The notes under the pieces are model-generated. The model had not been told where the DNA came from, searched no databases, and saw only the letters and a program-made list of their open reading frames with translations. A stretch of DNA of 64,000 nucleotides from a phage. Made by a program: the position numbers and the translations under genes. Below, one piece after another: positions 6,057 through 63,976 of this stretch (its first letter is position 1; each line of letters begins with the position of its first letter). The stretch lies in assembly GCA_024613925.1 (NCBI GenBank), contig GCA_024613925.1_4713.1; one strand, given 5' to 3'.

Positions 6057-6086
6057 GCTCCTCCTTCCCTGACGGGTTGGAGGAGC
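6057..6086 (-). terminator. GC-rich hairpin (gctcctcc...ggaggagc) downstream of lipoprotein gene
   Basis: 8-bp stem plus inner ccc/ggg; core ttccctNacgggttgg shared with hairpin at 1617. Confidence 0.5.
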
Positions 6087-6094
6087 ATACTTAA

Positions 6095-6601
6095 TTACTT
6101 ACTGATAACCTCAACGGAATCCGGGTCGGCGATCAGCGCACGATCGGTAGAACAATTGAAGAAGACCATACCAACACCATCACCGTTCGAGTTCAGGGTT
6201 GAACTTGCGTAAGACAGGGTTGGTTTATTCATGCGGTAGAAGCGTTCGCTGGTTGTGGTATTGAACCCCAGATCAACGTAGTCTTTCACCGTGGTGTACA
6301 ACTGTGTGGACTCGAAAACGGTTACCGGAGAGTCAACGGTAAACTGACTGCCTTCATCCACAACCAGAACTTTATCGTTCCAGATTTCAGTGGTTGAGAA
6401 CTTCGGTTTCCAATGTTCGAATTCCTGGGTTGCACCCCAGCAAGAATACACAGCGAGATTGCTGTTCTTCTCGACAGGTTTCAACCCCACCAGTTGTGTC
6501 AGGTCTTTATCCAGGTTCGGTAAACCTTCCAGCGTAGCACACCCACCCAGAGAAAGCACCATCAACATACCAAGAACGATCGTGCAAAGTTTCTTCATCA
6601 T
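6095..6601 (-). CDS. lipoprotein (signal peptide with lipobox LSLGGC)
   Basis: N-terminus MMKKLCTIVLGMLMVLSLGGCATLEG. Confidence 0.6.
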   Translation of the reverse strand: MMKKLCTIVLGMLMVLSLGGCATLEGLPNLDKDLTQLVGLKPVEKNSNLAVYSCWGATQEFEHWKPKFSTTEIWNDKVLVVDEGSQFTVDSPVTVFESTQLYTTVKDYVDLGFNTTTSERFYRMNKPTLSYASSTLNSNGDGVGMVFFNCSTDRALIADPDSVEVISK

Positions 6602-6641
6602 CGGATTTCCTTATGTGTAACGGGAGTGATCTCCATAGTAA

Positions 6642-7226
6642 TTACACAGTTGTAGGAAATTCCGGCCAATCGATATTTGGTGCTGTTGATGTGTCAACGC
6701 GATGCAGAGCCACCCGATACTTTTTCCATGCCGTCAACATGGACACCTCTTCTTCCGTTGCGATCTCCAGATCCACAGCATCCTGAAGTGGCGTAATATG
6801 ATCATTCGCCGCCTTCATCAGACTGTTTTTTGTTTCTTCCGCCTCCCGGATCCGGAACAGTTTTTCTGCTTCCGTATCCTTCACCCAGGCTGTGCCGTCC
6901 CACTTCTGAAACTCCCCTTCCGGCGATAACCAGGTAACATTTTCCGGTAACGGACCGAGTTCAGAAATAAATAACGCGTCGCCGGAAGCCACGTCATAAA
7001 CCGTTTTACCCCGATGATCTTCAACGAGATGCCACGATTCATTTTCATTGTTAAAAACTGCCACAAAACCAGCAGGAATTTCCGGTGGGGCGATATCTGT
7101 AGAATTAGCTGGCAGACCTGTATGAGGCGGAATATATGCATCACCTTCACCAATAAATTCATTAGTTCCGGCCAGCAGATTATAAATTTTTATGGTCCGT
7201 GGTTGTTCACTCATTCTGAATGCCAT
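6642..7226 (-). CDS. tail fibre assembly protein (Tfa-type chaperone)
   Basis: C-terminal region [45 protein letters not shown] typical of lambda/P2-type Tfa; start ATG overlaps fibre stop (TAATG). Confidence 0.8.
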
Positions 7227-21633: not shown

Positions 21634-21861
21634 TTATACATAAGAGATCAATCGTTGAATGATTTTTACTTTGCCTTTACCTGGACCTTTCTTGCGGCGA
21701 TTCAACAGACGGATACTGTTTCCAGTTACGGTGTCGCCATCATAATCAGCCTGGAACTGTGATAAAAAAGCAGGCTGTATCGGATCGACACCAGGATTGC
21801 TATAGAAAGGATTGAGACTTAAAAGAGGATTAGCTGGAATCATCGTATTGTCCTTACTCAA
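21634..21861 (-). CDS. small basic protein with RRKKGPGKGK motif
   Basis: 75-aa ORF; motif shared with ORF 38457..38648. Confidence 0.35.
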   Translation of the reverse strand: MSKDNTMIPANPLLSLNPFYSNPGVDPIQPAFLSQFQADYDGDTVTGNSIRLLNRRKKGPGKGKVKIIQRLISYV

Positions 21862-37116: not shown

Positions 37117-37485
37117 TTATTTGTTAGGGTCTATTAGCGTCAGATACAACGTATACAGATCGGTAATCCCTTTTCTAATATACCGTGCTTGAAGACGTCT
37201 CATATCCCGGGTTTTATAAGGGAAATCAGGATCCATATACAAACGATAATTCGCTTTCATTAAAACCAACACATCCTCTATAAACCGAAGATATTGCTTG
37301 ATAGCTGGGTCTGTATCATACGCGTAATGGCGCGCCCCACCGAATCCCAATTCCCTGTTCAGCTCTCTTAGTCGTATCGATACTAATCCGAAATCAACAA
37401 GCTCGACGAGCTGACGTAAATTACGATTAAACCAATATCGATACCAAAATGACTGTATACCCCAACCAGTTCTATTTAACTTCAT
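37117..37485 (-). CDS. hypothetical protein
   Basis: 122-aa ORF. Confidence 0.45.
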   Translation of the reverse strand: MKLNRTGWGIQSFWYRYWFNRNLRQLVELVDFGLVSIRLRELNRELGFGGARHYAYDTDPAIKQYLRFIEDVLVLMKANYRLYMDPDFPYKTRDMRRLQARYIRKGITDLYTLYLTLIDPNK

Positions 37486-39341: not shown

Positions 39342-39617
39342 TTAATCCTCCATGAGTTCCTTTATTTCTTTTACGATCTGTGTAATACGCGACGGTGTAA
39401 AGCCGTACCGTTTAGCTATTTCCTTATTGCTCGTGCCATTTAAATGGTCGCGATATATCATTGCACGATTTAGTATTTTGATATCGTCAGAAAGTTCTAA
39501 TAGTCTAGCGACCTCACGATCGTCAAGTTTGTTTTTCGTGTTTAAGCTATGTTCTATTACGCTTAACTCAGCCTTACAACTCTTGATAAAATCACCAACG
39601 GTGGTAATAACTTGCAT
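39342..39617 (-). CDS. small HTH DNA-binding protein
   Basis: HLNGTSNKEIAKRYGFTPSRITQIVKEIK resembles sigma-70 region-4 / LuxR-type HTH; SD AGGTGA. Confidence 0.5.
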   Translation of the reverse strand: MQVITTVGDFIKSCKAELSVIEHSLNTKNKLDDREVARLLELSDDIKILNRAMIYRDHLNGTSNKEIAKRYGFTPSRITQIVKEIKELMED

Positions 39618-39636
39618 AAATCACCTATTTCCGTGT

Positions 39637-39660
39637 TGCGGGTGGATGCGCCCACCCGCA
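39637..39660 (-). terminator. hairpin tgcgggtgg atgcgc ccacccgca downstream of thyA-like gene
   Basis: 9-bp perfect stem. Confidence 0.55.
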
Positions 39661-42737: not shown

Positions 42738-44063
42738 TCACTTCAGTAGCTTAGACGTCGCCATGCTTCGCGCTAACGCAACGTCATACGCATCCATGAT
42801 TGCGTCACCGATAGCGGTATGACGGATCAGCGGAATACCCATGTCTGGATACTCTTTGGTGCCTAAGATGGATACCGGTTTGTCTTGATACGCAGCAATC
42901 ATCGAACGAATATCCTGAACCTGGTTATAACGACAAACTGGCTTAAAGCCCGCTTTACGGAACCAATGCTCTAATTGAGGCCAATCTGTTTCACCGCGAG
43001 CAAGATAATAGAAGGTATCTTTACCGTAGTATTCGGTCATTTTGTCACGAATACTGTTGACGAACGCATTTACTTCGGCGATGGCTTCTTTATAACCCAT
43101 TGCCTTACAATGTTGAAAACAATAGTCGCGCGCTTCCTTTGGTGCTTTGGTTTGCCACCATTCTACTGTTGATTCACTGATACGACCACCGTCAGCGATT
43201 TGACCATGAACGTCAGGGAAGATATCTATACGCGGACCGTTAACAATGGATTCTGGATTAGCCAGATCGAAGAACACGATACCGATTTCCAGCAATACTC
43301 CATTCTTTTCCAGACTAAGGTTTTCAACATCTAAACAAAATGCAGGCTTCTCTACCGCTAACGGCTCGAACGAATGGTTGCTGGTATCCGATTCGGTTTT
43401 AAGTTCGACGACAACCGGATCGGTATCCGTAGGTTTCAGTTCTACTACAGCATCATCGAGTCCCGATAATGAAAAATAGTCTTCGAAGAAATCGGGTATC
43501 GTCATACCATGCAAATTGATATCGCAATCTTCCAACCATTGCTTCAACTGGTGCTCACCGGCATGAATCGCTAAACGGCATGGTCCGGAACGATCATCTA
43601 GCGCTGCATCGATCCAGAAGAAAGCACGTATAAGTAAGTAAGGATTATACTCCGCGATGATTTCTTGGCTAGCCGAGAAATCGTACACCATTAGTTGTAT
43701 TATTCCCTTACGTGTGTTATACGGATCAACTTTCAATCGACGCACTATTTCTTCTACGAATTCCAGCGCACGCGTGTACGATGTGGACCCACCTTGTTCA
43801 TACGAACATATACCCGTCAAAAGTTCCTTATAGGACGCATATGGAACCATAGGCGATAATTTGTACGACAGTTCAGTATTGTAATTATCGCATAATTTCT
43901 TCGGGGCGATAGCATCCTGTATCGCTGTAATAAACGCCGGTCCATCAATATCAAACAACCATCCTTGACGCCGGTATGCAGTGTATCGTAATAACGCACC
44001 GATAACTGCCTGGGGCGGTGTATATTCTTTCCCGTTAATTTCAAACAGTAGTTTGCTCATCAT
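42738..44063 (-). CDS. protein with C-terminal DEDDh-type 3'-5' exonuclease domain and unknown N-terminal domain
   Basis: FCLDVENLS (Exo I D-x-E) and HTAIGDAIMDA (Exo III H-x-A-x-x-D-A). Confidence 0.5.
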   Translation of the reverse strand: MMSKLLFEINGKEYTPPQAVIGALLRYTAYRRQGWLFDIDGPAFITAIQDAIAPKKLCDNYNTELSYKLSPMVPYASYKELLTGICSYEQGGSTSYTRALEFVEEIVRRLKVDPYNTRKGIIQLMVYDFSASQEIIAEYNPYLLIRAFFWIDAALDDRSGPCRLAIHAGEHQLKQWLEDCDINLHGMTIPDFFEDYFSLSGLDDAVVELKPTDTDPVVVELKTESDTSNHSFEPLAVEKPAFCLDVENLSLEKNGVLLEIGIVFFDLANPESIVNGPRIDIFPDVHGQIADGGRISESTVEWWQTKAPKEARDYCFQHCKAMGYKEAIAEVNAFVNSIRDKMTEYYGKDTFYYLARGETDWPQLEHWFRKAGFKPVCRYNQVQDIRSMIAAYQDKPVSILGTKEYPDMGIPLIRHTAIGDAIMDAYDVALARSMATSKLLK

Positions 44064-44075
44064 AACACCTTTTCA

Positions 44076-48808: not shown

Positions 48809-49366
48809 TCACTCCATCCATACTTCTTCGTCGTAATGATTTTCTATCGCATTACGCCAAAAACGCACGGTGTCCAAACTAATCGGTGCGTAAAAGTGTT
48901 GGTCAACGCCTACGTTAAGTCCGTTGGCCTTCGCTAACATACAACGATGAATATGCCCGAATAGATTAAAGTAGCCTGGATTTCTTTCGCTGGGCTTATG
49001 GCATAGCCAGTAGGATTCGTCATTGCTAATCGGCAACACCAACGGGTGTTCATAAACAGCAGCAAACCCCATACCGAGCAGTTTATCACGCCACGCTTCG
49101 AAGCTTAATCCTGTCGCTTTGTATGCGTCTTCGTCCCAATTCCCCAATACCAATTGAACCTGGATATCAGAACGAATGGCTTCCACGAACTCGAACTTAC
49201 CCCAATCACCTAAATGCCACAACACACTGTTCTTTGGAAGCTTGTTGATGGCTTTCAGCATATGCTGGTTCATATCGGCGACGCTTGCGAACGGACGGCG
49301 TGAATACGTCCATGTACGCTCGCTATCAAAATGGGTATCCGACATAAAGAAGATGGGTGGGGTCAT
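48809..49366 (-). CDS. metallophosphoesterase (calcineurin-like phosphatase)
   Basis: SDTHFD, LGDWGK, GNWDE, FGHIH motifs. Confidence 0.7.
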   Translation of the reverse strand: MTPPIFFMSDTHFDSERTWTYSRRPFASVADMNQHMLKAINKLPKNSVLWHLGDWGKFEFVEAIRSDIQVQLVLGNWDEDAYKATGLSFEAWRDKLLGMGFAAVYEHPLVLPISNDESYWLCHKPSERNPGYFNLFGHIHRCMLAKANGLNVGVDQHFYAPISLDTVRFWRNAIENHYDEEVWME

Positions 49367-49845
49367 TGATCTAATTGCTCCAGAAACGCACGACCCGATT
49401 TACTTGCTTTTAAATGCTGTTCTGCGGAAGTAAGCAGAAGATCGGTTGGTGTGAATGCAGCGCTACCTTTCCACGCTGTTTTCAGTTTGCCCTTTTCGAT
49501 ACTGAACTGAATCAGTTGCTGGGTACCGAAGTTAAGCGTGTTCGTCGCGGCGCTAAATACACCACCCATCATGCTGTAACCAAAGACTTTCACGTTTTCC
49601 GTGTAGAAGTCATTGTCGATCAATTTGTTCTGGAGCTCGAGTTGGTCGGACGGCAGCAATCCCCCATCAAAGATGCTTAAAATACCAGCCAGGCGATACA
49701 TACTCACCTTTCCTGAAACACCCACCACGTAATTGCCGTACACGGTTTCTTCCAGTTTAGCAACAACGGTGCGATCGTCGGAGGTTTTCATCGAAACCTC
49801 AATACCATCACCAACTTCTGTTAATGTTAAATCAACGATACTCAT
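49363..49845 (-). CDS. hypothetical protein
   Basis: 160-aa ORF, 4-nt overlap. Confidence 0.5.
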   Translation of the reverse strand: MSIVDLTLTEVGDGIEVSMKTSDDRTVVAKLEETVYGNYVVGVSGKVSMYRLAGILSIFDGGLLPSDQLELQNKLIDNDFYTENVKVFGYSMMGGVFSAATNTLNFGTQQLIQFSIEKGKLKTAWKGSAAFTPTDLLLTSAEQHLKASKSGRAFLEQLDQ

Positions 49846-50706: not shown

Positions 50707-50740
50707 CTCCTCCCCAGGAAAGGTGTGGGGAGGAGTTTTT
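50707..50740 (+). promoter_or_regulatory. GC-rich hairpin ctcctcccca...tggggaggag followed by TTTTT, in divergent intergenic region upstream of helicase gene
   Basis: 10-bp stem plus T5 on plus strand; no plus-strand gene upstream within window. Confidence 0.4.
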
Positions 50741-50770
50741 ATCATACATTCTATTAAATCGAGCGCGATT

Positions 50771-52852
50771 ATGTTGGATAGAATCAATCGTTTAATGAAC
50801 CGAATAACGGTTAAAAATCAGAGTAACAATACCGTGCATATCGGGGGTATCGATGCCTGGCGTCTTTCAGATGACATTCAGCGAATATGGGGTACCTCCC
50901 GATTTATGAAACATATGTTTCGTAATTTCTCTTCTAGTGGACTCAGTCTCCACAACTTTTACCTTCCCGATTTCGTTTATATTCTCGAAACGATCATCGA
51001 GGCAAAGAATACTCGCAGTAATAAACGCATGCTGAAACACCTTATTGAGGTACTGCTGCAGGAAACCTGGTTGCAAAATACCACAATCGAGCAACCTGCA
51101 ATCCTCGATAAAGCACGCATGAACAAAATGCTAACGCTCTCCCTGTTCGATTATCAAGATGAGTTTATCGACATCTATAACCGTAACGTACCTAAATATC
51201 GACTGAAAGGATACGTGTGCGCGATGGGTGCGGGTGCGGGTAAAACAATCACCGCATTGGCTTTAAGCGCCGCAATGAACGTCGATGTATTTGTGGTTTG
51301 CTGTCCTAAGAACACCATGCGTTCAGCATGGCAATCCGATGTAAACAAAGCCATCGTTGACCCTGCAACAGAAACCGCGTTCTGGTCAGATACAATGCCC
51401 CCATCACAGCTGCAGAAAAGCGATAAGTATTATTTTCTGCATTACGAGTCGATGGGTTTATTAAACGAAGTAATGATCAAGCATAAACGCACAGCGAAGC
51501 GCGTGTTGATCGTGGTTGACGAAAGCCATAACTTCAACGACAAGAACAGCCAACGTTCCCAACGACTGGTTGATCTCGTACAGACGATGCGTCAGACCAT
51601 GAATGCGGATGTGCATGTCTTGTTTATGTCGGGTACGCCTGTTAAACAGATGGGTTCTGAGATGATCCCCTGTTTAGGTTGTATCGACCCGATGTTCCAA
51701 GGACAGGTGGTCGATAGCTTCAAAGCAATTTACGGTTTAACCAGCAGTCGCGCTAACGATATCCTCAGACATCGTCTTGGGTTCATGATGCATGTCGTAC
51801 CTAAAGAGGCTTACCGTAAAACCCGTCCGGAAGTTCAGGATGTTTACGTGAAGCTTCCTAACGGTAGCGATTATACCATCTCGAGCATTCGTGACGATAT
51901 GGCGATATTTGTACGCGATCGGGCGAAGTATTACAAGGATAACTGGGGGCATTACAGAAAGATTTTTGATGACGCGTTGGACTACTATCGCAAGACTATT
52001 CGTACCGATGGTGAACGTAAAGAGCTATCTCGATACGAATCGATTGTTGCTCGTTTCCAGAAAGGTTACGACCCCGTCAGAGACAAAGAAGATGCGATGT
52101 TCTGCAACACGTTTGAAAAACGAGCGATCATGCCGGTTCTTCCTTCCGATTTAAGGGTTGCTTTCAAAGACGCCAAGAGCGTCATCAAGTACGTTGGGTT
52201 GAAAATTCAGGGTGAAGCGTTGGCGCGTGTTCTAGGTGCAGCCCGCATTCGGTGTCATGTCGACATGGTGGAATACATCGACTTCGAAGGGTACATCAAC
52301 AACGCTGAAGCCAAGGTGTTGATCTTCACGTCGTATGTTCAGGTGGTTGAGCGCGTCGACAACCTGCTTCGTGATGCGGGTTTCTTACCTGAACCCATTT
52401 ACGGGAAGACCAACAAGAACATCAACCAGATACTTGTTCGTCTACGGGACGATCCTGACAGCGGTCCCGCTATCGCAACATTTGATAGCTTAGCTGAAGG
52501 GGTTCCGATGCTGATGTGTAATGTGGGTCTTTTCCTGAACAACCCGTGGCGTTCGTCCGATGAAATCCAAGCCATCAGCCGTCTCGATCGTGTAGGGCAA
52601 ACGCAACCTGTTCGGATTTATCGTTTCATGTTGGATACAGGAAGCGAGGGTAACGTTTCTACACGTAGCCACGAAATCATGGAGTTAAGTCGGCAGCTTG
52701 TTGAAGAAATCACGGGTGTCAAATACGTGGTGAACAAGCAAGACGATGTTAACTTGCAAGAAACGTTGGCGATGGAAGGATACGATCAATACGTTACCGT
52801 AAACACCACGGAATACGATATTAAACCGCGACCTGCGTTCTTGGAATGGTAA
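50771..52852 (+). CDS. SNF2-family (SF2) helicase/ATPase
   Basis: Walker A GAGAGKT, DExH VVDESHN, C-terminal QAISRLDRVGQ; start set at ATG 50771 downstream of hairpin. Confidence 0.7.
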   Translation: MLDRINRLMNRITVKNQSNNTVHIGGIDAWRLSDDIQRIWGTSRFMKHMFRNFSSSGLSLHNFYLPDFVYILETIIEAKNTRSNKRMLKHLIEVLLQETWLQNTTIEQPAILDKARMNKMLTLSLFDYQDEFIDIYNRNVPKYRLKGYVCAMGAGAGKTITALALSAAMNVDVFVVCCPKNTMRSAWQSDVNKAIVDPATETAFWSDTMPPSQLQKSDKYYFLHYESMGLLNEVMIKHKRTAKRVLIVVDESHNFNDKNSQRSQRLVDLVQTMRQTMNADVHVLFMSGTPVKQMGSEMIPCLGCIDPMFQGQVVDSFKAIYGLTSSRANDILRHRLGFMMHVVPKEAYRKTRPEVQDVYVKLPNGSDYTISSIRDDMAIFVRDRAKYYKDNWGHYRKIFDDALDYYRKTIRTDGERKELSRYESIVARFQKGYDPVRDKEDAMFCNTFEKRAIMPVLPSDLRVAFKDAKSVIKYVGLKIQGEALARVLGAARIRCHVDMVEYIDFEGYINNAEAKVLIFTSYVQVVERVDNLLRDAGFLPEPIYGKTNKNINQILVRLRDDPDSGPAIATFDSLAEGVPMLMCNVGLFLNNPWRSSDEIQAISRLDRVGQTQPVRIYRFMLDTGSEGNVSTRSHEIMELSRQLVEEITGVKYVVNKQDDVNLQETLAMEGYDQYVTVNTTEYDIKPRPAFLEW

Positions 52853-52952: not shown

Positions 52953-54410
52953 ATGAAACTCAAACAAAGCTGGAAAGACGAACTTCTCGCGTTAGTAAAT
53001 AGCAAAAACGGTTTACAGCTGACATTAGCCGACGTAAAATTTGAACTAACTGAACCGGTAAGCGAAGTGCCCGGAACGGTTGTTGTTACGATCAAACCGA
53101 ACGATAATAGCCGTTACTTTAACGAGCAGTCTCTGACCTACATCCGTCGAGACATCGCTAAAAACTTCACCGGGATCCCGTTACGGGTTATCGTTAAAAA
53201 TGATACTGCTGTACGGGATATCATCAACACGATCGCCGAACGTTACGGATTAGTATTTGACACAACCGTCGACTTCCTCGAATCCGAGCTGAATAAACAA
53301 ATTACGTTCGAAGACACCGGTATTAAAGACATTACGGTTCCGGTTGCAAACACGTCTTATGTTTGGGCTGGTAATCTTCAGTTCAATATCGCTAACGATA
53401 CGTTGAGCTTGATTACAATCATCAAGCAAACCAATCTTACGAATCTGGTTTATCTGGATGGTGTTGAAGCTGACACATCGGGTTCGTTACTATTAGCGAC
53501 GGCCTCGATTATTGACGATACCGGAAATACCGAAGCGGCTGAAGGTATCCTTGACGCCGCGTACTTCCAGAATGTCCTGAACGTCATGGTTCGTTATGGT
53601 GATATTACCAGCGAACAAATGCAACAAGCAATGCAGACAATTAACCAAAGCGAAGACGCACGTAAAGTAGTGACGAGGTCATACGGTGACGTCGAATTAC
53701 TGGTAACCGCCAAGAAAGATTGGGTTATCGGTAGCCTTAAGGGTGTTATGGCTGTTGTTCGCGTTCTACCTAAACCAATCCAATACGTTTTTAAAACAAA
53801 AGGCGGCAGCGTTGCAATGTCATTAGCAGGTTGGAAAAATGTTTCCATCGATTGGGGTGATGGGACTAAGACGACGGAGACCGCCAGCAATAATGAATAT
53901 CGGCACTACTATGCGGACGGTGACACTACAGAACGTACGGTCGTCGCTACGGGTACTCCCTCCATAATCGTCGATACATCCGCAATGCATGGCTTCATTG
54001 GTGAAAACATCACTGAAATCGTTGACTGGAACAACGGATTACCTTACGCCCCAGTATACCTTTCGAGGTACAATTTAATTAAGGTTCCCGATTATATCCC
54101 GTCATATTGGACATCGTTAAATGGTATGTTTATGCAATGCCGCGCTCTTAACGACGTGAACATCACCAAATGGAACACCAGCAACATTACTTCAATGGAT
54201 AACCTCTTCTACAATTGCGCTGCGTTCAATCAGCCGATCGGTTCGTGGGATGTTTCGTCTGTTAAGAGTGTAAACAATATGTTGTCTGGGTGCTCCGCGT
54301 TCAATCAGGATCTGAGTGGTTGGACATTCCCGGCAGGCACTTCACACATCGACTACGACAACACTACCCACGCATGGCAGTCCGATTACAAACCACACTT
54401 CACCGAGTAA
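52953..54410 (+). CDS. receptor-binding protein: N-terminal adapter module plus C-terminal BspA-like leucine-rich repeats (paralog E)
   Basis: N-terminus closely matches paralog C (SLTYIRRDIAKNFTGIPLRVIV, AERYGLVFD); repeats KWNTSNITSMDNLFYNCAAFNQPIGSWDVSSVKSVNNMLSGCSAFNQDLSGW. Confidence 0.65.
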   Translation: MKLKQSWKDELLALVNSKNGLQLTLADVKFELTEPVSEVPGTVVVTIKPNDNSRYFNEQSLTYIRRDIAKNFTGIPLRVIVKNDTAVRDIINTIAERYGLVFDTTVDFLESELNKQITFEDTGIKDITVPVANTSYVWAGNLQFNIANDTLSLITIIKQTNLTNLVYLDGVEADTSGSLLLATASIIDDTGNTEAAEGILDAAYFQNVLNVMVRYGDITSEQMQQAMQTINQSEDARKVVTRSYGDVELLVTAKKDWVIGSLKGVMAVVRVLPKPIQYVFKTKGGSVAMSLAGWKNVSIDWGDGTKTTETASNNEYRHYYADGDTTERTVVATGTPSIIVDTSAMHGFIGENITEIVDWNNGLPYAPVYLSRYNLIKVPDYIPSYWTSLNGMFMQCRALNDVNITKWNTSNITSMDNLFYNCAAFNQPIGSWDVSSVKSVNNMLSGCSAFNQDLSGWTFPAGTSHIDYDNTTHAWQSDYKPHFTE

Positions 54411-55779: not shown

Positions 55780-57354
55780 TTACAATTCAAAATCTTCATC
55801 GATAACGCGCTGGGTAAGCACTTTGTCGCTGAAGAACTCCACCTTGCGCTGATGGTATTTACGGTGCGCTTCAATAGAAGTACATACCAGATACCAGAAC
55901 GTTGGTGTCATTCCTTCAAACTTCCCTTTCAGCTGACGCAGTCGCCCCAACACCTGAATGTTACCGGTTCGTGACCCCATCGCTAATGTCATGAACGTCA
56001 TCACCAAGTCAGGAAGGTCGATACCTGTACCTGCCGATTTCACGGTTGTAACGCTGATATCGTTATCCAACAAGACCATGAAATCTTCTTCAGCAGTATA
56101 AGGACCAATCTCTAACTCAGGAATACGTTCACTGAGATAATGCGATAACGACTTACACATATCAACGGTTGCACAATACACCAGCATCTTCATACCTTCC
56201 TGATACTGGTTCATGAAACCTTTGATGATAACCGTATAGATAAAGTTGAAATAGGCGAGTTTGAGTTGCTTGTTCTTCATGATAGACTGTTCGAATATCG
56301 TGTGAGAATAAGAACCCCCAAACCCTTTGTATCTGACTTTATCTGTACTGCGTAGTCGATACGTCACGGCATTTACCGCAATGTATTTCTTGTATTCGCA
56401 TTTCGCATAACGCGCTTCTTTCGGATACATCAAATACAACATCCGCTCGATGAACGGATCGTCAGACACCGCTGTTGCCGACAGATAGATGATTTCCGGA
56501 ATATTTGCATAGCACTTCACTTTGAACAAGAAATGCAAGGCTTCATGGCATTCATCGTGGATCAACAACCCAATACCTGTTTTCTCCCAGAACTCGGCGG
56601 GATGGAAAACATAAGGTGCGACACAATTGTTCTTTTCATAATCGGTTATGTATCTCTGAAACATGTTCAGCGAGAATAACGCAATTTTGAAATCCAGCTC
56701 ACCTTGTTCCACCAACGTCTGGAATTCCAGCATGCTGTAACGAGGAATGTCTGGATGCGGTGGGTCAGATTGGGCTGTACCGCGTATCTCGATAACATCG
56801 CCTGGTTCCATACCGAAGAAACTTAGCAACGAGCTGCGCCATCCAGGCATGTATCTCGGTGACAGAATAATGCCCGTCCGTACACCACGTCGGAAGGTGA
56901 TCTCCTGCGACATGGCTGTTTTACCACTGCCCGTGCCTGCGGTGTTTAGGCTCATTCTGAAGGGGGTATCCTTACCCCCATCCATGTACTCCAACCATTC
57001 TTGCTGATCTTCGCGCCACGGGAACTTCCATTTCTTTACGAACTCCACTTCCTTACCTGGCACCGGATCGTGATAAACGATTTCCAACCACTCTTTTCGG
57101 ATTCCTCGAGAGAAGATAAAATCCAAAAACGATTTCAACTGTTCACGGAGTAAGTATACCTCGCTATAATCGCTTCTTGCCGCGGCATACGTGTTTATGG
57201 TATCGGTAACCATTCTCCGTGTACGAGGGTCACGTCGTTTCCTCAGATGCAAACAACGGTCTCGAAGGTAATGGCCGATAAGATGGGCAAATCGAAGTCC
57301 GTATCCGCTCAGCCTCATGCCATGCGAGAAGACGTCGATACGAGCTAACTTCAT
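55780..57354 (-). CDS. DEAD/DEAH-box-like SF2 helicase
   Basis: Walker A GTGSGKT, motif II LIHDECHE, motif III SAT, TAT... GRLRQ. Confidence 0.65.
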   Translation of the reverse strand: MKLARIDVFSHGMRLSGYGLRFAHLIGHYLRDRCLHLRKRRDPRTRRMVTDTINTYAAARSDYSEVYLLREQLKSFLDFIFSRGIRKEWLEIVYHDPVPGKEVEFVKKWKFPWREDQQEWLEYMDGGKDTPFRMSLNTAGTGSGKTAMSQEITFRRGVRTGIILSPRYMPGWRSSLLSFFGMEPGDVIEIRGTAQSDPPHPDIPRYSMLEFQTLVEQGELDFKIALFSLNMFQRYITDYEKNNCVAPYVFHPAEFWEKTGIGLLIHDECHEALHFLFKVKCYANIPEIIYLSATAVSDDPFIERMLYLMYPKEARYAKCEYKKYIAVNAVTYRLRSTDKVRYKGFGGSYSHTIFEQSIMKNKQLKLAYFNFIYTVIIKGFMNQYQEGMKMLVYCATVDMCKSLSHYLSERIPELEIGPYTAEEDFMVLLDNDISVTTVKSAGTGIDLPDLVMTFMTLAMGSRTGNIQVLGRLRQLKGKFEGMTPTFWYLVCTSIEAHRKYHQRKVEFFSDKVLTQRVIDEDFEL

Positions 57355-59357
57355 AACGTGATTACATCCTCCGGTTTAGGTTCTTTACGCGGTAACAGCA
57401 TGTAGTCGATCGGATGATCCGGCTTCATGGTTGGGATATAACTGTTCGGGTTTTGGAACGCATCCAGCTGCTCTTGGTGAGCGAACTTCATACTCAAGGA
57501 GCGCATGTTCATGTTCTTCTTGAAGGTACTGAAGTATCGTGTTGTTCCCTGTTTCGGCATGCGATAATCTTTCGTGTGTGGCGAACGAATCATGCTGGCG
57601 TAGAGAATAACATCGAGATGCGAAAGGTTCATTCGCAGACGCTGGGCACACAGACGATGCCAATAGTACAGCACGTTTGCAACTTCCTCCGGTGTTGCTT
57701 CGTCTTCCGAGAGGAATCCGGCACTGAAAGAACATTTCCCGAATTTGAACTCACGTTCGATTTCTTTTGCGTACTCCATCATGTTTTTGTGGATTAACGG
57801 CATCTGGAATAACGTACGTGAATTGTCCCAGTGTTTCAAGTCGAAAATCACAATCCCGTCAGACGTCACTTCCCAGCTATGGCGTTTGAGGTAACGGATA
57901 AACGCTTTACTCGGTACAACAGGACGACCACAGAAATCGAAATTGACTTTGAGCTTACGATAGCTTTCATCTTTCCTGTCGTAAATCTCCATATCGCAAA
58001 GCGTCATGTTAAACAGACGTTGCGGTATCAGCGAACTGATTTCTTCCGCTTCCGCTACGTCATACAACATGTTCGCAAGACCTAACTTCATCTTAATCAA
58101 CACGTGTTTACCTTTCAGCTCACGTGCGAGTTTGATGTCGTTCATGTTCTGGCTGTAGCGAAGGATATGTTGATATTCCGGTGGGATTGGTGCTGTGGAT
58201 ACCGTTGACGAACCATCGTGATGTTTGGTAGAAAGAATGTTCTGCGTTACCTGTTGCGAACAGGTACGTGCTGCACCATCACCGACATTATCAGTCAATG
58301 CGAAGTTATGACTTAATTCACCGTAACACGTCGTACATACCCCAGCAGGATCGGGATGATGACAATAGTTAACGGAGCGCATGCGTACCGTCGTACCAAT
58401 CAATTCTTTCATGTGTGGCTGTATCGCTACCAACGAACCGTCATCACGAATAATGAATCGACCGTGGAAGCCACGCAGGTCGGTCTCATCACGGATTGGC
58501 ATCGGGATGGTCTCTTTACTACCACAATCACCAGGATGGAGTCGCTGTACAACCGCCGTCGCTATCTGAAGTTCACGACCGAAATATTCAGACTTTTTAA
58601 TCTGCTCTTTGTTGAACAGCAACGATTTCGCCGCAGAACGACTTTCTTTCAAGCTGTCAGGAAGAGAGATCAAACCGGCTGCATACGACCGCATTACCGG
58701 ATCGCGGAATATCTCGGAGTTAATATCGGTCAAGAATCCACGCATCCCAATACACTGCAGCACCTGCCCAATCGAAACGTGTTCGGTTCTTACCGCACGT
58801 GCAATAGGGTTTGCATGTAGCGTTTTATCGGTGCTCAGTACCTTCGTCAGTTTCTTGTATGCGCTTTCAATGCCTTCGCGGGTGGGTTCCGCTTCGGCGA
58901 TGATTTTCTTAACTTCGGGATGTACGGTAATCTGATAAAAATCGTCCGCGCAAATCGTTGTTACGTATTCCTCCAACGCATACGTAAAGAAGTTATATAC
59001 ATTGTTAAACATATCGAACAATGCTTTCCAGAGAACCTCACGATTCTCTTGCGGATAAGCATACATGCATTGACGATACGCGGCGCTTTGCAACGCAACC
59101 GATGAACCCGCTGTGAACTTGCGTTTATCAACCAGGTTCTCTTTTGTCAGTGGGGTCTCAGGATACATGCGATGCACAGACCAGTGCATGTAACTAAAGA
59201 AAATGCGTCGCGCACGCAATTCATGAACGCCATCGTCCATCTCGATATACACACGGTCATTAGGCTGTGCCCACTCGAACACCTCATCAACCGGCCAATG
59301 CATAAGCTCGCGTGCCCTCACACGACGTTTCGTGGTGGTTGTCTGTGTTGTAATCAT
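57351..59357 (-). CDS. RNA polymerase beta-prime-like subunit, C-terminal portion (bridge helix and trigger-loop region)
   Basis: By-eye alignment to bacterial RpoC: GMRG (bridge helix) and RSVNYCHHPDPAGVCTTCYGEL...GDGAARTCSQQVTQNILSTKHHDG vs RSVVSCDTDFGVCAHCYG...IGEPGTQLTMRTFHIGG. Confidence 0.6.
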   Translation of the reverse strand: MITTQTTTTKRRVRARELMHWPVDEVFEWAQPNDRVYIEMDDGVHELRARRIFFSYMHWSVHRMYPETPLTKENLVDKRKFTAGSSVALQSAAYRQCMYAYPQENREVLWKALFDMFNNVYNFFTYALEEYVTTICADDFYQITVHPEVKKIIAEAEPTREGIESAYKKLTKVLSTDKTLHANPIARAVRTEHVSIGQVLQCIGMRGFLTDINSEIFRDPVMRSYAAGLISLPDSLKESRSAAKSLLFNKEQIKKSEYFGRELQIATAVVQRLHPGDCGSKETIPMPIRDETDLRGFHGRFIIRDDGSLVAIQPHMKELIGTTVRMRSVNYCHHPDPAGVCTTCYGELSHNFALTDNVGDGAARTCSQQVTQNILSTKHHDGSSTVSTAPIPPEYQHILRYSQNMNDIKLARELKGKHVLIKMKLGLANMLYDVAEAEEISSLIPQRLFNMTLCDMEIYDRKDESYRKLKVNFDFCGRPVVPSKAFIRYLKRHSWEVTSDGIVIFDLKHWDNSRTLFQMPLIHKNMMEYAKEIEREFKFGKCSFSAGFLSEDEATPEEVANVLYYWHRLCAQRLRMNLSHLDVILYASMIRSPHTKDYRMPKQGTTRYFSTFKKNMNMRSLSMKFAHQEQLDAFQNPNSYIPTMKPDHPIDYMLLPRKEPKPEDVITL

Positions 59358-59502
59358 TATTACTTTCCGATTTAAATGGTTTTATCATACGGTTTACCAA
59401 TTCCGTTGGAATTTACTATCATCATGATAGCATCGGGAATCCCTTCTCTTAGGTTATGTAGGTGTTAATATATCTCCACTACCGGAGTAAAAGTCGGCAA
59501 CA

Positions 59503-59988
59503 TTACCCGGCTTTCTGTCGTAGAGCGTACGGATCCATAGCGTCTGATATATCCGAAACAACCGTGAGAATGAAGCCCTTTATCTGTCTCACTTCGGTCA
59601 CACGCAATCCTTTATCGTTACGATATACGTTTTCTTCACCAACCAACTTTGGTCGGATAACATAAACGCCATCAACAAACGGGAATGTCGAATACGGATA
59701 AACACCAATAGAAATGATGTTTGGATAATCGCCTCGAAGGTCACGTCCGAACTTATCGACTCGACCATAAATCGTTCCATCCGCACCCTCCACTTCAATG
59801 AGGTCGTTACGAATATCCTGAAATAGCTGTTCTAAGGTGTCGACAGGATACGTATATGCGACGCCTAACGCAGGATCCTCGATCGTTTTGACATTGAATC
59901 CGTTAAGCCAAACAATCCGTTCATTCGCCCATGTTTCTTCATATACCGTTAACCCATCGCCGTATATGTTGGCGTGTACTATCTCCAT
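59503..59988 (-). CDS. hypothetical protein
   Basis: 161-aa ORF. Confidence 0.45.
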   Translation of the reverse strand: MEIVHANIYGDGLTVYEETWANERIVWLNGFNVKTIEDPALGVAYTYPVDTLEQLFQDIRNDLIEVEGADGTIYGRVDKFGRDLRGDYPNIISIGVYPYSTFPFVDGVYVIRPKLVGEENVYRNDKGLRVTEVRQIKGFILTVVSDISDAMDPYALRQKAG

Positions 59989-60102
59989 AATCTCATTTCC
60001 TCTTCTACGTAGAAATAGATGACATGTTGGATATACGTTGCCTTTGCATATATTGCTTTATTTCCGTCAGAAATAACGGAAAATAAAAACAACGACATAA
60101 TT

Positions 60103-60132
60103 CCCTCCCACCTCCACATGGGAGAGGGAGGG
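60103..60132 (-). terminator. GC-rich hairpin ccctccc...cacatggg...gggaggg, followed on minus strand by AATTATGTC
   Basis: Imperfect stem read from sequence. Confidence 0.5.
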
Positions 60133-60145
60133 TTATTCGTGTTTA

Positions 60146-60508
60146 TTATTCTACGCTGTCTTCTTCCGTATCGTCCTCTTCAGAACCATCGAATGTTTTC
60201 ATTGTGACGGTGGTATCCCAGTTAGCTGCGTAATCGGCCATCGCTTCACGCAATGCTTCTTCACCAGCATCACCAGCCAGGTCAAGTACAACCAAACCCT
60301 GTGCGACGTTTTGAGCAACGGTATCAATAACGGTTGCATCTTCTTCAAAACTACGTACGGGTTCAATGGTACCTACATCAACAGCGTAGTTCGTGGTTGC
60401 TGTAAACACGGCGACTTGTAGCGCATTGCTATCTTCATCATGCAGTGCTGCTTCAATACCGATTGGACGAGCCAGTTCTTGCAGTGTTAATTTGCGAATT
60501 AAGTTCAT
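60146..60508 (-). CDS. hypothetical acidic protein
   Basis: 120-aa ORF. Confidence 0.45.
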   Translation of the reverse strand: MNLIRKLTLQELARPIGIEAALHDEDSNALQVAVFTATTNYAVDVGTIEPVRSFEEDATVIDTVAQNVAQGLVVLDLAGDAGEEALREAMADYAANWDTTVTMKTFDGSEEDDTEEDSVE

Positions 60509-60530
60509 TATGTTTTTCCTCAGGTGAATG

Positions 60531-60881
60531 TTAGCAATCGTTTAAAACTTTTTCGATACGATGGTTGACGAATTCATTGAACGACTCTTCGGCTTGTTCG
60601 ATAATTTCATCAACATCGATATCTAATTGTTGGGGTTGGATAACATGCTCTTTCATGGTTTCCAGCCAGTATTCAGCTTTAACCATAACGTTAGCGACGT
60701 GTTCGACCTGGCTGCGTATGTCGACGATCTGGCAATCAGGATTGTTAATATCGATGATGTGTCCGTGGTGTTTGATAAACCCTAACTTATTCGACGCCCT
60801 TACCGCATCGCGGGCAAGGTCTTGCAAGATTAAATTATTGACGTAGTTCACTGCTATGGAACGATTTTCTTTATCACTCAT
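60531..60881 (-). CDS. hypothetical protein
   Basis: 116-aa ORF. Confidence 0.45.
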   Translation of the reverse strand: MSDKENRSIAVNYVNNLILQDLARDAVRASNKLGFIKHHGHIIDINNPDCQIVDIRSQVEHVANVMVKAEYWLETMKEHVIQPQQLDIDVDEIIEQAEESFNEFVNHRIEKVLNDC

Positions 60882-60960
60882 ACCAGGGATCCTCTTTTAA
60901 GTGTTCACATTCTAGTGTTAAGCAGTTAAAATAAACCGTCCCTTTAATCAGCATAAACAT

Positions 60961-60989
60961 CCTCCTCCCACCACATGGGCAGGAGGAGG
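60961..60989 (-). terminator. GC-rich hairpin cctcctcc...cacatggg...ggaggagg, followed on minus strand by TGTTTATGCTG
   Basis: 8-bp stem. Confidence 0.55.
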
Positions 60990-61000
60990 CGTAATATGCA

Positions 61001-61411
61001 TCAGAAAGGAGGACGATCTTTAAATTCTAGCAATGTATCTTCGAAGCAAGCGATAAGTTCAGACTGCAATTCGGTACGGCCTTGTTCACCGAAGAGTTCC
61101 AGCAACATTAACCCCCGAGCGGTCTTCGTAGCAACCTCTTCGCAGATGCGGAGATCGCGAACTTCATCATCGCCGACATCTTTACGTAACTGCGCTGCAA
61201 TGGGCTTAAGATTGCCGTTTTCATCGTGTTCGTCACGAAATGCATCATAAGCCGCATCGATGTTCGCGATCCGTGTCAATCCTTCAGAATCCCGCCAGTC
61301 TCGATATAATCCAAGCAGACGGTTATGATTCTTCGTTTTGACGTTCGGTGCTGGAAGGTTGCGCAACAGATGTGGTGTAATCATTGCTATCACGCTATCC
61401 GAATGATCCAT
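61001..61411 (-). CDS. hypothetical protein
   Basis: 136-aa ORF. Confidence 0.45.
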   Translation of the reverse strand: MDHSDSVIAMITPHLLRNLPAPNVKTKNHNRLLGLYRDWRDSEGLTRIANIDAAYDAFRDEHDENGNLKPIAAQLRKDVGDDEVRDLRICEEVATKTARGLMLLELFGEQGRTELQSELIACFEDTLLEFKDRPPF

Positions 61412-61422
61412 CGTATACCTCG

Positions 61423-63591
61423 TTAGCTTTCGCAGTCATCTGCGTCGATGATTTGTCCGCCAGCAACGTTCAGTTGATGATACAGAATCCTCAACGCACG
61501 GTTGCCGCCAATTGGATACTTCTCGAAGTTGGTCGCAATAGGAATCGCTGACGGTTTATCGGTCGCATAGATGCTTTCAGTGATGCTATCCACCTGTTTT
61601 GGATTGTTCGCATAATCCATAAAGACGCTTGCGAACCATCCGCCAGCAAAGGCGGTAACTTCGCGATGCTCAGATTCACCACAGTAACGAGTTGGTTGCT
61701 CTTTACCCGGAGAACTGTATTTATCGCTATTACTGAGTTTCGACGGTAATCCGTGCGCTTGCAGTTTAGGAATACCCACCGCTGACCAATCGTTCGCCGT
61801 CTTCTCCAGCATCATGATGTACGTGTCACCGATCGCAATATCGTTCTTGGTTGTCCGCCACTGCCCGGAACGCCCACGATACCGTACAGGACCTTTCTTC
61901 AACGGGAACTCACGAATCAGATTCTCCATACGTTCTGAACCTGCTGCGATACTGTCCGTCGGGATATAAACTTCCGTACCGTGGCGTTGTACGTACCGTA
62001 AATGATCCCATTTATCCTCATCCGTGATACAGTATTTTTCAACAACCTGTTCCACGAATTCAGGACTGACGATATAGTAGTAGCGCATCAGTGTGTTCCA
62101 AGCGGTCTCCAGATCGCCTGCATCCATCACCGGTTTCAGTTCACGCATGATCTGATCACCAACGCCGTTGATGTACGGTGCGTTAACACGACTTAAACTC
62201 ATCCTTTTGATTACCGTACTATCGTCGAACATGAAGTCCGCAACATTACCCCATTGGTCAACCGGCATTTCATCGTCTTCCATGATGTCGGTTACAACGA
62301 ATTTATCACCCGCCATACCGGTGAATTTAAACCCGATACCTGGAACAACGTCATACGTGTACGTGATGGTCACACGCCAATCATCGAGATTCTCTTTGCG
62401 GTAATCGCGGGTCGGTAGCACATGACGTAGCTGTCCGTTGGGATTGCGGATATCAATACCATGTTCAGCATCAGCCAGGTTCAACCACCACATCACCGTT
62501 TGATGATGACGTATCGGCGTACCAACGCGTTCACGTTCGTACTTACGAACAGCATCCTGAATTCGGGTGTAAAGCAAACCGATCGCGTTCTCGTATTTCA
62601 GGAATTGACGATACGGAGGACGCATCTTCTCTTCCATCATAATCGCACGCTCGCGGGCTTGACGTCCAGAACGACGATGTCGATCGCTGACAACATCGAT
62701 ATCCGTTACACGCGCATTCGGTTCCGCGTAAGTGAGATCATCGTAAACATAATCCACACGCTGAAGGTTACACGTCATCATGTCAACAACGCTGAGGATA
62801 GGATCGATTTCGCGTGTTGCTGCAAGCAACCCATCTTTACGAATACGCTCGCCGTTCTCGGGTATTGCTTGGTATACTTCGTCATCACCGTAGAGATTGA
62901 TTGGGTATCGCGATTTACCTGACGTGATTGTTCGCTTCTCAATACCTGTGCTGGTGAAATGCTTCAATACACCACGACGGGCAACGCCACCATCTTCAAT
63001 ACATTGGTAGAAGCTACCGAAACACACCTTGCAATCGCGACCGTAACCCCACTCACGTGTTTCTTGATTGATCGCTGGGCTTTCCATCAAACGAGAATAT
63101 CGCGGTACGATCTGGCCTCGACGGAGGGAATGGAACAAGTTGGTTGGTCGAAAACGGAAACCGTACTGCTGATGCATGATGTGATGCTCAGGCACTTCAA
63201 GCAAGCGTAGCTCGTGACGGTTACCATCCTCTTGGTTTTCGTACAGCACGTAATGCATCGTGTTTGTTTTGATGCTGTTTGCTGTATGCCCCGGTTGGAA
63301 ACGTGGGATGATATCTATGATGCGAGATTCGACTGGAAACTCTACTGACCACGTGTTCTGTCCGTACTGGTATTCGATCCCCGTCGTCAGTCGGGACGGT
63401 TTCGCATCTTTGATAACCAACGCTTGGCTAAGATGTCCACCAAACATCGCAGCGCGCTGTGCTGAGTTATAATGCAATAGCCCGTTAAGTCCAGTCCCTA
63501 CGCCAGTATACTCCTGTTTAATGGGAATGATTTTACCTTCAGCGATTGCCTGCTTCACAGATTCATAAAGAGGTTTTTCTTTATAATGCAT
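61423..63591 (-). CDS. RNA polymerase beta-like subunit (C-terminal portion homologue)
   Basis: Weak by-eye similarity to RpoB C-terminal regions (GMAGDKFVVTDIMEDDEMPVDQWGNVADFMFD; YIMMLEKTANDWSA...GESEHREVTAFAGGWFASVFMDY); start set at MHYKEK (SD AGGAAG) rather than track start 63756. Confidence 0.45.
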   Translation of the reverse strand: MHYKEKPLYESVKQAIAEGKIIPIKQEYTGVGTGLNGLLHYNSAQRAAMFGGHLSQALVIKDAKPSRLTTGIEYQYGQNTWSVEFPVESRIIDIIPRFQPGHTANSIKTNTMHYVLYENQEDGNRHELRLLEVPEHHIMHQQYGFRFRPTNLFHSLRRGQIVPRYSRLMESPAINQETREWGYGRDCKVCFGSFYQCIEDGGVARRGVLKHFTSTGIEKRTITSGKSRYPINLYGDDEVYQAIPENGERIRKDGLLAATREIDPILSVVDMMTCNLQRVDYVYDDLTYAEPNARVTDIDVVSDRHRRSGRQARERAIMMEEKMRPPYRQFLKYENAIGLLYTRIQDAVRKYERERVGTPIRHHQTVMWWLNLADAEHGIDIRNPNGQLRHVLPTRDYRKENLDDWRVTITYTYDVVPGIGFKFTGMAGDKFVVTDIMEDDEMPVDQWGNVADFMFDDSTVIKRMSLSRVNAPYINGVGDQIMRELKPVMDAGDLETAWNTLMRYYYIVSPEFVEQVVEKYCITDEDKWDHLRYVQRHGTEVYIPTDSIAAGSERMENLIREFPLKKGPVRYRGRSGQWRTTKNDIAIGDTYIMMLEKTANDWSAVGIPKLQAHGLPSKLSNSDKYSSPGKEQPTRYCGESEHREVTAFAGGWFASVFMDYANNPKQVDSITESIYATDKPSAIPIATNFEKYPIGGNRALRILYHQLNVAGGQIIDADDCES

Positions 63592-63622
63592 AGGACTTCC
63601 TATTATCGAATTGAGGTACGTC

Positions 63623-63976
63623 ATGTCTAACACGCCCCTGAACGACTTTCTTAAGACAAACCCCGATGACCTCATCCACGATCTTGATTTCAGGAACGTT
63701 GTTGAGATGCATCTGGAATATTTCAAAAATGCCGGACTGGTCTCTACGATAGACATACCACCCGAACGTGCCTACGAATTCGATGGTAACTTTTATGGAT
63801 TGTGCCGTGTTCTGCTCGGTGAGGGCAGTGAACCAATGCACTGGATAACCATGAGACTCAATGGCTATCGTGACCCCACGGAATACACCGCCGATGTTCT
63901 AACCATGAAGATTGTCGATACAAGCGCAATCAACACATTAAAACAACAGTACCGCACAATCCACTACAGCGCTTAA
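63623..63976 (+). CDS. hypothetical protein (plus strand)
   Basis: ATG at 63623 with SD GAGGT; ORF runs to 63976. Confidence 0.35.
   Translation: MSNTPLNDFLKTNPDDLIHDLDFRNVVEMHLEYFKNAGLVSTIDIPPERAYEFDGNFYGLCRVLLGEGSEPMHWITMRLNGYRDPTEYTADVLTMKIVDTSAINTLKQQYRTIHYSA

Follow-up and report, generated by a model that had tools for sequence, protein, structure and literature searches.

Two genes of a Goslar-like phage assigned to a phiKZ-type non-virion RNA polymerase

The stretch of phage DNA considered here, 64,000 nucleotides (nt) of contig GCA_024613925.1_4713.1 (assembly GCA_024613925.1) and called the window below, carries two minus-strand genes that resemble parts of the catalytic subunits of multisubunit RNA polymerase (RNAP). 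A first-pass annotation had described them as divergent, separately encoded homologues of beta-prime and beta. The question is whether these genes encode parts of a working polymerase and, if so, of which one. In all likelihood they encode two of the five subunits of the non-virion multisubunit RNAP (nvRNAP) of the phage, and are of the types of gp74 and gp71-73 of phage phiKZ. Counterparts are found also in Escherichia phage vB_EcoM_Goslar and in Erwinia phage RAY. The first gene and its elements are the following.

57351..59357, minus strand: gene assigned to the C-terminal half of nvRNAP beta-prime (beta-prime C), 668 amino acids (aa); orthologue of phiKZ gp74, Goslar gp165 and RAY gp249
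58737..58748, minus strand: GMRG motif, residues 204-207, mapped to G742-G745 (region F) of E. coli beta-prime and preceding the bridge helix
58557..58664, minus strand: predicted bridge helix, residues 232-267, a DSSP helix of 36 residues in the AlphaFold2 model
58326..58526, minus strand: putative zinc-binding site of C278, C332, C341 and C344, all four invariant in 65 homologues
58218..58286, minus strand: the trigger loop's predicted first helix, spanning residues about 358-380 (model helices 358-375 and 377-380)

The 668-aa protein matches the PHROGs family phrog_3015 ('RNA polymerase beta subunit') from end to end with an expectation value (E) of 6e-170. When compared with the PDB sequences by phmmer, residues 11-654 match PHIKZ074 (7OGP_D, E 2e-86), and the matches that follow are the AR9 non-virion RNAP (E 1e-13) and dozens of bacterial beta-prime subunits (1e-4 to 0.03). 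A family profile built from 65 homologues, taken from public genomes and metagenomes, aligns with residues 702-944 of E. coli beta-prime (E 2.6e-15), and the protein has about 26% identity to the E. coli subunit over 212 residues. The AlphaFold2 model, with a predicted local distance difference score (pLDDT) of 86.8 and a predicted template-modelling score (pTM) of 0.75, finds its best Foldseek match in chain D of the phiKZ nvRNAP elongation complex (8QUE_D, template-modelling (TM) score 0.88/0.89). The next matches are the AR9 nvRNAP and then the beta-prime subunits of T. thermophilus and E. coli at E of about 1e-13. The proposed kinship with RpoC is thus borne out by the profile (E 2.6e-15) as well as by the predicted fold (TM 0.88 to phiKZ gp74).

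The open reading frame (ORF) exists as first described, and its RpoC signatures, GMRG, DCGS at residue 277, GVCTTCYG at 339 and KHHDG at 378, are present and conserved. Residues G207, D277, C278, C332, C341, C344, G346, K378 and H379 are invariant or nearly so among the 65 homologues, which argues that the motifs are not chance strings. Equivalences to E. coli residues were derived by mapping the proteins of the window through the family profiles. In this map the GMRG motif, whose G207 is invariant and R206 nearly invariant, aligns with the catalytic core, as had been supposed, but it lies just N-terminal to the bridge helix, of which it had been taken as the signature. K244, Y258 and R261 of the bridge helix correspond to K781, Y795 and R798 of E. 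coli beta-prime, and C278, C332, C341 and C344 to C814, C888, C895 and C898. In the trigger loop, Q372 and the invariant H379 correspond to Q929 and H936. The bridge helix of phiKZ gp74 spans L242-Y279, its trigger helix T365-V383, and its zinc site is made of C288, C341, C350 and C353 (PMC8287921). The four cysteines of the window protein are the equivalents of these. Since Pfam gives nothing above threshold for the 668-aa protein, the first-pass annotation had seen only signatures in it. Alignments and model together support its identification as a C-terminal half of beta-prime, covering regions F-H, with bridge helix, zinc site and trigger loop.

The second gene is read from the same strand:

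61423..63591, minus strand: gene assigned to the C-terminal half of nvRNAP beta (beta C), 722 aa from M56; orthologue of phiKZ gp71-73, Goslar gp171 and RAY gp248
63592..63756, minus strand: 5' extension of the maximal ORF, probably untranslated, overlapping the divergent gene and the intergenic region
62197..62379, minus strand: predicted double-psi beta-barrel core with K422 and K430 (722-aa numbering), from the residue map and the alignment with 7OGP_C
62992..62997, minus strand: E199-D200, mapped to E813-D814 of E. coli beta, the active-site acidic pair; D200 is invariant and E199 nearly so

The maximal ORF, 61423..63756 on the minus strand, has 777 aa, and this is the extent that had been given to the gene. 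An AGGAAG Shine-Dalgarno sequence stands 4 nt upstream of the ATG of M56, with no comparable site before the other candidate starts. The Goslar annotation uses the same start, the N-termini of 26 homologues align there with an invariant M1 column, and the matches to homologues all start past M56, from about residue 79-88 in the 777-aa ORF. For these reasons M56 (window position 63591) is most likely the true start, which gives a protein of 722 aa and makes the earlier upper coordinate 165 nt too long.

The likeness of this ORF to RpoB, which had been called weak, is real, and it is weak only in pairwise comparison. The protein matches phrog_3295 (E 2e-180) and, over almost its full length, phiKZ gp71-73 (7OGP_C, E 1e-85, phmmer against the PDB); AR9 nvRNAP follows at 3e-17 and residues 1063-1241 of E. 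coli beta at 0.0065. A profile of 26 sequences aligns collinearly with E. coli beta at 659-709, 771-837 and 1050-1241 (E 3.3e-27). The AlphaFold2 model (pLDDT 78.9) matches 8QUE_C and 7OGP_C with TM scores of 0.74-0.78 (0.74/0.77 for 8QUE_C) and E 2e-55, and then the AR9 enzyme and bacterial beta subunits, that of E. coli among them, at about 1e-29. The comparison with RpoB by profile and by predicted structure points the same way as for beta-prime C. In Pfam only Rpb2_6 is found, below threshold (E 0.0056) and over the region of the barrel lysines. This is no argument against homology, because the PHROGs, PDB, profile and fold results all agree on it.

In the residue map K422, which is invariant, and K430, which is nearly so, correspond to K1065 and K1073 of E. 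coli beta and to K386 and K394 of phiKZ gp71-73, while R463 corresponds to E. coli R1106 and R46 to R678 (722-aa numbering). In E. coli beta, E813, D814, R678 and R1106 have functional roles in the active site. K386 and K394 are the lysines of the double-psi beta-barrel in phiKZ gp71-73 (PMC8287921). The alignments and the model support the identification of the second protein as a C-terminal half of beta that carries these lysines. Introns, as they occur in phiKZ gp71-73 and in Goslar gp247, are ruled out for the two genes of the window: Rfam finds no intron anywhere in the window, and both ORFs are contiguous relative to their orthologues.

The region of both genes has 95.5% DNA identity to positions 149525-155930 of Goslar (RefSeq NC_048170), the sole phage in the compared collection to match it at this level. 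The entire window is collinear with Goslar 91829-156171 by megablast, apart from a small number of stretches, distant from the RNAP genes, that have been replaced or inserted. Judged by its sequence, it belongs to a phage closely related to Goslar (Goslarvirus, a chimallivirus that forms a nucleus). Both phages have the same RNAP genes in the same order and of the same lengths, at about 96-97% nucleotide identity; the five small ORFs that lie between the two genes and the helicase gene that follows them are also shared. Beta-prime C has 99.6% aa identity to Goslar gp165, with 78 nt substitutions and 74:3 synonymous to nonsynonymous codon differences; beta C is 100% identical to gp171 in protein, with 70 nt substitutions and a ratio of 70:0. 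The downstream helicase gene shows 60 synonymous differences and 1 nonsynonymous difference. These ratios reflect strong purifying selection. The nearly all synonymous substitutions in the two polymerase genes also mark the window as a distinct Goslar-like isolate, and insertions and deletions relative to Goslar mark it as a distinct phage. Both genes are thus already known: RefSeq lists Goslar gp165 and gp171 as 'RNA polymerase beta subunit' and gp164 as 'DNA helicase'. For gp165, a beta-prime C-terminal half, the name is imprecise and beta-prime is the correct label.

The first-pass annotation had left the choice between the virion and the non-virion enzyme undecided. Several lines of evidence favour the non-virion enzyme: the best matches of both proteins are phiKZ nvRNAP chains, the gene order is that of the nvRNAP locus in related phages, and the genes of the virion RNAP (vRNAP) of Goslar lie at other loci. 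Searched by tblastn, beta-prime C has 311 places in 311 phage records and beta C 312 places in 308 records. Among the matches listed, all are jumbo phages, of Pseudomonas, Erwinia, Salmonella, Vibrio, Serratia, Aeromonas, Klebsiella, Ralstonia, Bacillus, Staphylococcus and other hosts. The split polymerase had been ascribed to phiKZ-like jumbo phages, and homologues in about 310 jumbo-phage genomes agree with this. In nearly all of these records each protein has a single place per genome, which indicates that the vRNAP paralogues are much more distant. The genes that accompany the two polymerase genes are listed here.

55780..57354, minus strand: gene for a predicted non-virion superfamily 2 (SF2) helicase of the DExH type, 524 aa; orthologue of Goslar gp164 and RAY gp250, in the position of phiKZ gp75
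59503..61411, minus strand: insertion of small ORFs (161, 120, 116 and 136 aa, and a 31-aa ORF annotated in Goslar), not polymerase genes
63623..63976, plus strand: conserved small gene divergent from beta C, 117 aa; orthologue of Goslar gp172 and RAY gp246, phrog_3455 (E 8.5e-22)

The core block of chimalliviruses consists of ChmC, the gp68-like subunit, two nucleus-associated proteins, beta C, beta-prime C and the SF2 helicase. The window holds the gp172-like gene, beta C, beta-prime C and the helicase, and the part that corresponds to Goslar gp173-176 lies just beyond its end. The order is that of RAY gp246-gp250 and of the PhiPA3 block ChmC, gp62, gp63, gp64, gp65-66, gp67. In RAY, fusions of gp248 (beta subunit 2), gp249 (beta-prime subunit 2) and gp250 to GFP co-localize with DNA in the phage nucleus (PMC10299810).

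The first-pass annotation had found no N-terminal half of beta-prime with an NADFDGD-type motif in the window and had concluded that the remaining subunits must lie elsewhere. The former is confirmed by a six-frame motif scan and tblastn. A tblastn search of the window with RAY gp2 and E. coli RpoB and RpoC gave no further RNAP pieces, and none of the gp55-like N-terminal half of beta-prime, the gp123-like N-terminal half of beta (beta N) and the gp68-like fifth subunit is found in the 64 kb. As to the latter, the partners were sought in Goslar, 95.5% identical in the RNAP region. There gp247, next to the nuclear-shell gene, is the counterpart of phiKZ gp55, the beta-prime N-terminal half (E 5e-62); gp039 is that of RAY gp2, nvRNAP beta subunit 1 or beta N (E 2e-69); and gp175, about 3 kb past the end of the window, is that of phiKZ gp68 (E 8e-28). 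All three are outside the part of Goslar that is equivalent to the window. Goslar gp174, which was also considered as the gp68 homologue, has no PDB match and was rejected in favour of gp175.

Chimalliviruses have split beta and beta-prime subunits in two paralogous sets (PMC8287921; PMC10299810), and sequence motifs alone, the only evidence that the first-pass annotation had, cannot separate one from the other. Both genes might then encode subunits of the packaged vRNAP (the type of phiKZ gp80 and gp149), injected together with the DNA for the transcription of early genes. This is very improbable and is effectively refuted by several observations. Both proteins match nvRNAP chains of phiKZ over their full length at about 1e-86, rather than the virion-packaged paralogues, and occupy one tblastn place per genome within a synteny block that includes the gp68-like gene and ChmC. 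The only other RNAP family in PHROGs that beta-prime C matches, phrog_2962 (a profile of 433 positions), is weak, with E 3e-10 over 114 residues. In Goslar the beta-prime C of the vRNAP is probably gp078, a different gene that lies outside the window; it has 433 aa and no PDB match, and the literature is the source of its assignment to the vRNAP. In the main text of a preprint on Goslar virion mass spectrometry, the five vRNAP subunits named are gp78, gp196, gp205, gp207 and gp210, and gp165 and gp171 are absent from those named there (bioRxiv 10.64898/2026.04.21.720040).

It is extremely improbable that the genes are decayed or catalytically dead relics, either pseudo-enzymes or structural proteins that retain the fold. 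Their extreme divergence from RpoB and RpoC, with 13-16% identity in structural alignments and only the sub-threshold Rpb2_6 match in Pfam, might suggest it, but every catalytic and structural residue that was checked is kept and shows no variation within the family, neither ORF is broken or shortened when compared with the active phiKZ enzyme, and the codon differences from Goslar show strong purifying selection. The phiKZ orthologues are biochemically active subunits (PMC8287921). An origin as fragments of host rpoB and rpoC, whether captured recently or part of a bacterial chromosome, has next to no probability. The host is E. coli and both proteins align with its beta-prime and beta; against this stand the low figure of about 26% identity with the E. 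coli beta-prime subunit over 212 residues, the collinearity of the whole window with Goslar, the fact that all homologues among the matches listed are in jumbo phages, and neighbouring genes that are those of a phage (tail fibre, endolysin, virion proteins).

No evidence contradicts the assignment to the nvRNAP, and what weighs against it is a set of limits. Pfam by itself gives no above-threshold match for either protein, which is read here as divergence. Since the window contains two of the five subunit genes and no more, the complete enzyme is reconstructed from Goslar. The choice of the non-virion enzyme depends on orthology together with what has been published on Goslar and phiKZ.

One further trace of a catalytic motif was followed in the window. 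A 75-aa ORF at 21634..21861 (minus strand), the hypothetical gp102 of Goslar, contains FQADYDGDTV (QPAFLSQFQADYDGDTV), with the motif at 21733..21747 (minus strand). It resembles the catalytic loop of beta-prime, in E. coli HPLVCAAYNADFDGDQM, and no other contiguous AD[FY]DGD than that of this ORF occurs in the window or anywhere in the Goslar genome. As a piece of RNAP the ORF was rejected: it has no PHROGs match, its match to residues 449-466 of E. coli beta-prime is not significant, at the DNA level it resembles none of the RNAP genes of Goslar, and past DGD its residues are not the same in the window as in Goslar. The motif is probably a coincidence, though an unexplained one. That no other contiguous copy exists in Goslar is explained by introns, which interrupt the catalytic motif there. 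The coding sequence of Goslar gp247 ends in '...GYNADF|SFFN*', where an annotated group I intron with the HNH gene gp186 interrupts NADFDGD, and in the vRNAP region a frame that reads 'DGDTVSVNVLYS...' ('DGDTVSVN...') follows the second annotated intron. The sites are outside the window:

NC_048170 169269..170910 and about 211750..212245: intron-related sites of Goslar, from the annotation

What has been established directly is the orthology of the two proteins to chains of known structure in phiKZ, the conservation of their core residues and the strong purifying selection on their genes. A role can be proposed by analogy. Beta-prime C and beta C would assemble with the N-terminal half of beta-prime, which carries the DFDGD magnesium site, with beta N and with a gp68-like subunit, all encoded elsewhere, into an enzyme that would lack alpha and omega. 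The gp68-like subunit would occupy the position of sigma and would be needed both for promoter binding and for formation of the active centre. The genes would be transcribed early by the injected virion RNAP, and the product would be imported into the phage (chimallin) nucleus, where it may transcribe middle and late phage genes independently of host RNAP by the same nucleotide-addition cycle as the bacterial enzyme. The SF2 helicase, a conserved and probably nuclear-localized neighbour, may be translationally coupled to beta-prime C. Around the RNAP genes neither sigma-70-type promoters (15 found, 16 expected) nor intrinsic terminators (6 found, 7.3 expected) are enriched, as would be expected of genes transcribed by phage polymerases. 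The proposed role follows the biochemistry and structures of phiKZ (PMC8287921) and the literature on RAY, Goslar and the chimalliviruses (PMC10299810). For phiKZ, middle and late transcription is known to be rifampicin-resistant and host-independent (PMC8287921).

The claim that an SF2 helicase gene adjoins the polymerase genes holds: the gene at 55780..57354 abuts beta-prime C, and its start overlaps the stop of the latter by 4 nt (ATGA). Walker A (GTGSGKT) and HDECHE are visible in the translation. The protein matches phrog_16 (E 2e-25), while ResIII, DEAD and Helicase_C of Pfam are found only below threshold, and it has 35% identity to RAY gp250 (BLASTP, E 2e-97). The two genes overlap by 40 nt in the relative L010 (66-68% identical) and are 14 nt apart in RAY. 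Such a helicase is usually assumed to be a replication helicase. RAY gp250 is nuclear-localized and has been termed a non-virion SF2 helicase (PMC10299810), and phiKZ gp75, which adjoins gp74, is likewise treated as a DNA helicase. In Goslar-like phages, in RAY and in phiKZ alike, the helicase gene directly follows beta-prime C; with this, with the overlap of its start in the Goslar-like phages and with the nuclear localization in RAY, the helicase could be a dedicated accessory factor of the nvRNAP. Joined to this is a reading of the space between beta C and beta-prime C as an insertion site that varies by lineage and holds fast-evolving acidic proteins. Taken as a whole it is a rather doubtful proposal; if true, the helicase might act in transcript release, in the removal of R-loops or in handing off mRNA for export.

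The window encodes a second helicase, of the SNF2/ResIII type, at 50723..52852 (plus strand, 709 aa; phrog_62, E 1e-89; Goslar gp160). In RAY, gp131 is a virion-associated helicase of the SWI/SNF family (PMC10299810). Next to the second helicase is a 485-aa protein, 52953..54410 (plus strand), the equivalent of Goslar gp161, which the text of the preprint groups with the DUF7941 filament proteins that have leucine-rich or carbohydrate-binding domains (bioRxiv 10.64898/2026.04.21.720040).

In the window 2.06 kb with five small ORFs separate beta C from beta-prime C. The small ORFs of 59503..61411 have no Pfam or PHROGs matches. In RAY and in phiKZ-like phages there are no genes in this gap (73 bp in Churi); there are 5 in the window and Goslar, and 13 in L010 (66% identical; 3489..9958), where only the 161-aa and 136-aa ORFs of the window have detectable homologues. 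Two of the small ORFs have 89-90% nucleotide identity to Goslar, with 16 and 8 nonsynonymous codon differences, and so evolve much faster than the RNAP genes. Judged by this gene content, the gap is a lineage-variable site for accessory genes, with 0, 5 or 13 small, lineage-specific genes. The very acidic 120-aa ORF at 60146..60508 (minus strand; 89% nt identity, 8 nonsynonymous codon differences), one of the genes of the block that change fastest, is Goslar gp168, given in the preprint text as present in more than 200 copies per virion and as having no predicted function (bioRxiv 10.64898/2026.04.21.720040). Between the 136-aa and 116-aa ORFs there is a strong 12-bp hairpin (8 GC) at 60961..60989 (minus strand), with no clear T-tract; it could be a terminator of a phage polymerase or an RNA-processing site.

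On the other side of beta C, the 117-aa divergent gene has BLASTP matches to RAY gp246 (E 6e-10) and to an opposite-strand 116-aa gene of L010 (E 1e-45). Only about 30 nt (63592..63622) separate it from the beta C start, so the promoter of beta C would overlap the neighbouring gene or lie further upstream. This intergenic stretch and the first 165 nt upstream of beta C are 100% identical to Goslar, with about 96% in the flanks.

Elsewhere in the window, megablast finds no match to Goslar at 6684..9173, 11140..12885, 37133..37398, 39352..39650 and 43358..44070, and Goslar 117703-118565 and 121394-122106 are not present. The first of these stretches, of 2.5 kb, sits in the tail-fibre region and is bordered by an Rfam match to IS009 (6685..6883, minus strand, 163 bits, E 1e-38); Goslar gp090 resembles gpS of P1. 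This suggests that 6684..9173 is a swapped tail-fibre or host-range module. A 160-aa ORF at 49363..49845 (minus strand) is by position Goslar gp158, which in the preprint text ranks second in abundance among ten high-copy virion proteins that are uncharacterized (bioRxiv 10.64898/2026.04.21.720040). A tRNA scan of the window found none.

The two genes bring no new biology, as the phiKZ orthologues have cryo-EM structures and those of RAY have been localized. Through them the window can be placed among the Goslar-like chimalliviruses. With the nvRNAP, which belongs to the core gene set of Chimalliviridae, jumbo phages that form a nucleus can transcribe without need of the host's polymerase, and the two proteins illustrate that highly divergent RNAP subunits can be recognized from motifs alone. 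The by-products are a corrected beta C start, the beta-prime label for the 668-aa protein and the variable accessory-gene gap.

Of the known systems, the phiKZ nvRNAP (PDB 7OGP, 7OGR, 8QUE, 9RJS) is related through gp74 and gp71-73, which are full-length orthologues with about 24-31% identity in structural alignments; by tblastn, identity to phiKZ-like phages is 29%. The bridge helix, trigger loop, four-cysteine zinc site and double-psi beta-barrel lysines are the same, and so is the order beta C, beta-prime C, helicase. The beta C genes of phiKZ-like phages, however, match in two pieces, in one relative with an annotated HNH homing endonuclease between them, whereas that of the window is a single piece. 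In phiKZ-like phages the two genes abut (the 73-bp gap of Churi), whereas in the window they are 2.06 kb apart. The host of the window phage is E. coli, and that of phiKZ is Pseudomonas. RAY has gp248, gp249 and gp250 as orthologues at 32%, 30% and 35% identity (BLASTP, E 9e-108, 5e-96 and 2e-97) and the conserved opposite-strand small gene upstream (gp246); it differs in having no genes between beta C and beta-prime C and in a helicase start that does not overlap the beta-prime C stop.

The nvRNAP of Bacillus phages AR9 and PBS2 (PDB 7S00, 7S01, 7UM0) is likewise split in beta and beta-prime and has no alpha or omega. Its homology to the window proteins is more distant (E 1e-13 and 3e-17, TM 0.6-0.7, 13-18% identity in structural alignments), and only the central part aligns by sequence. 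AR9 uses gp226 as a specificity subunit and is not known to form a phage nucleus, and its nvRNAP reportedly recognizes the template strand of uracil-containing promoters. From bacterial RpoC and RpoB the phage subunits differ in being split into separately encoded halves, in an enzyme with no alpha or omega, and in the absence of the SI3-type insertion of the trigger loop and of other lineage insertions; identity to bacterial beta-prime and beta is 12-16% in structural alignments. The fold and the architecture of the active site are nevertheless the same, with GMRG, the bridge helix, the zinc site, the trigger-loop histidine, the ED pair and the equivalents of K1065 and K1073 all conserved.

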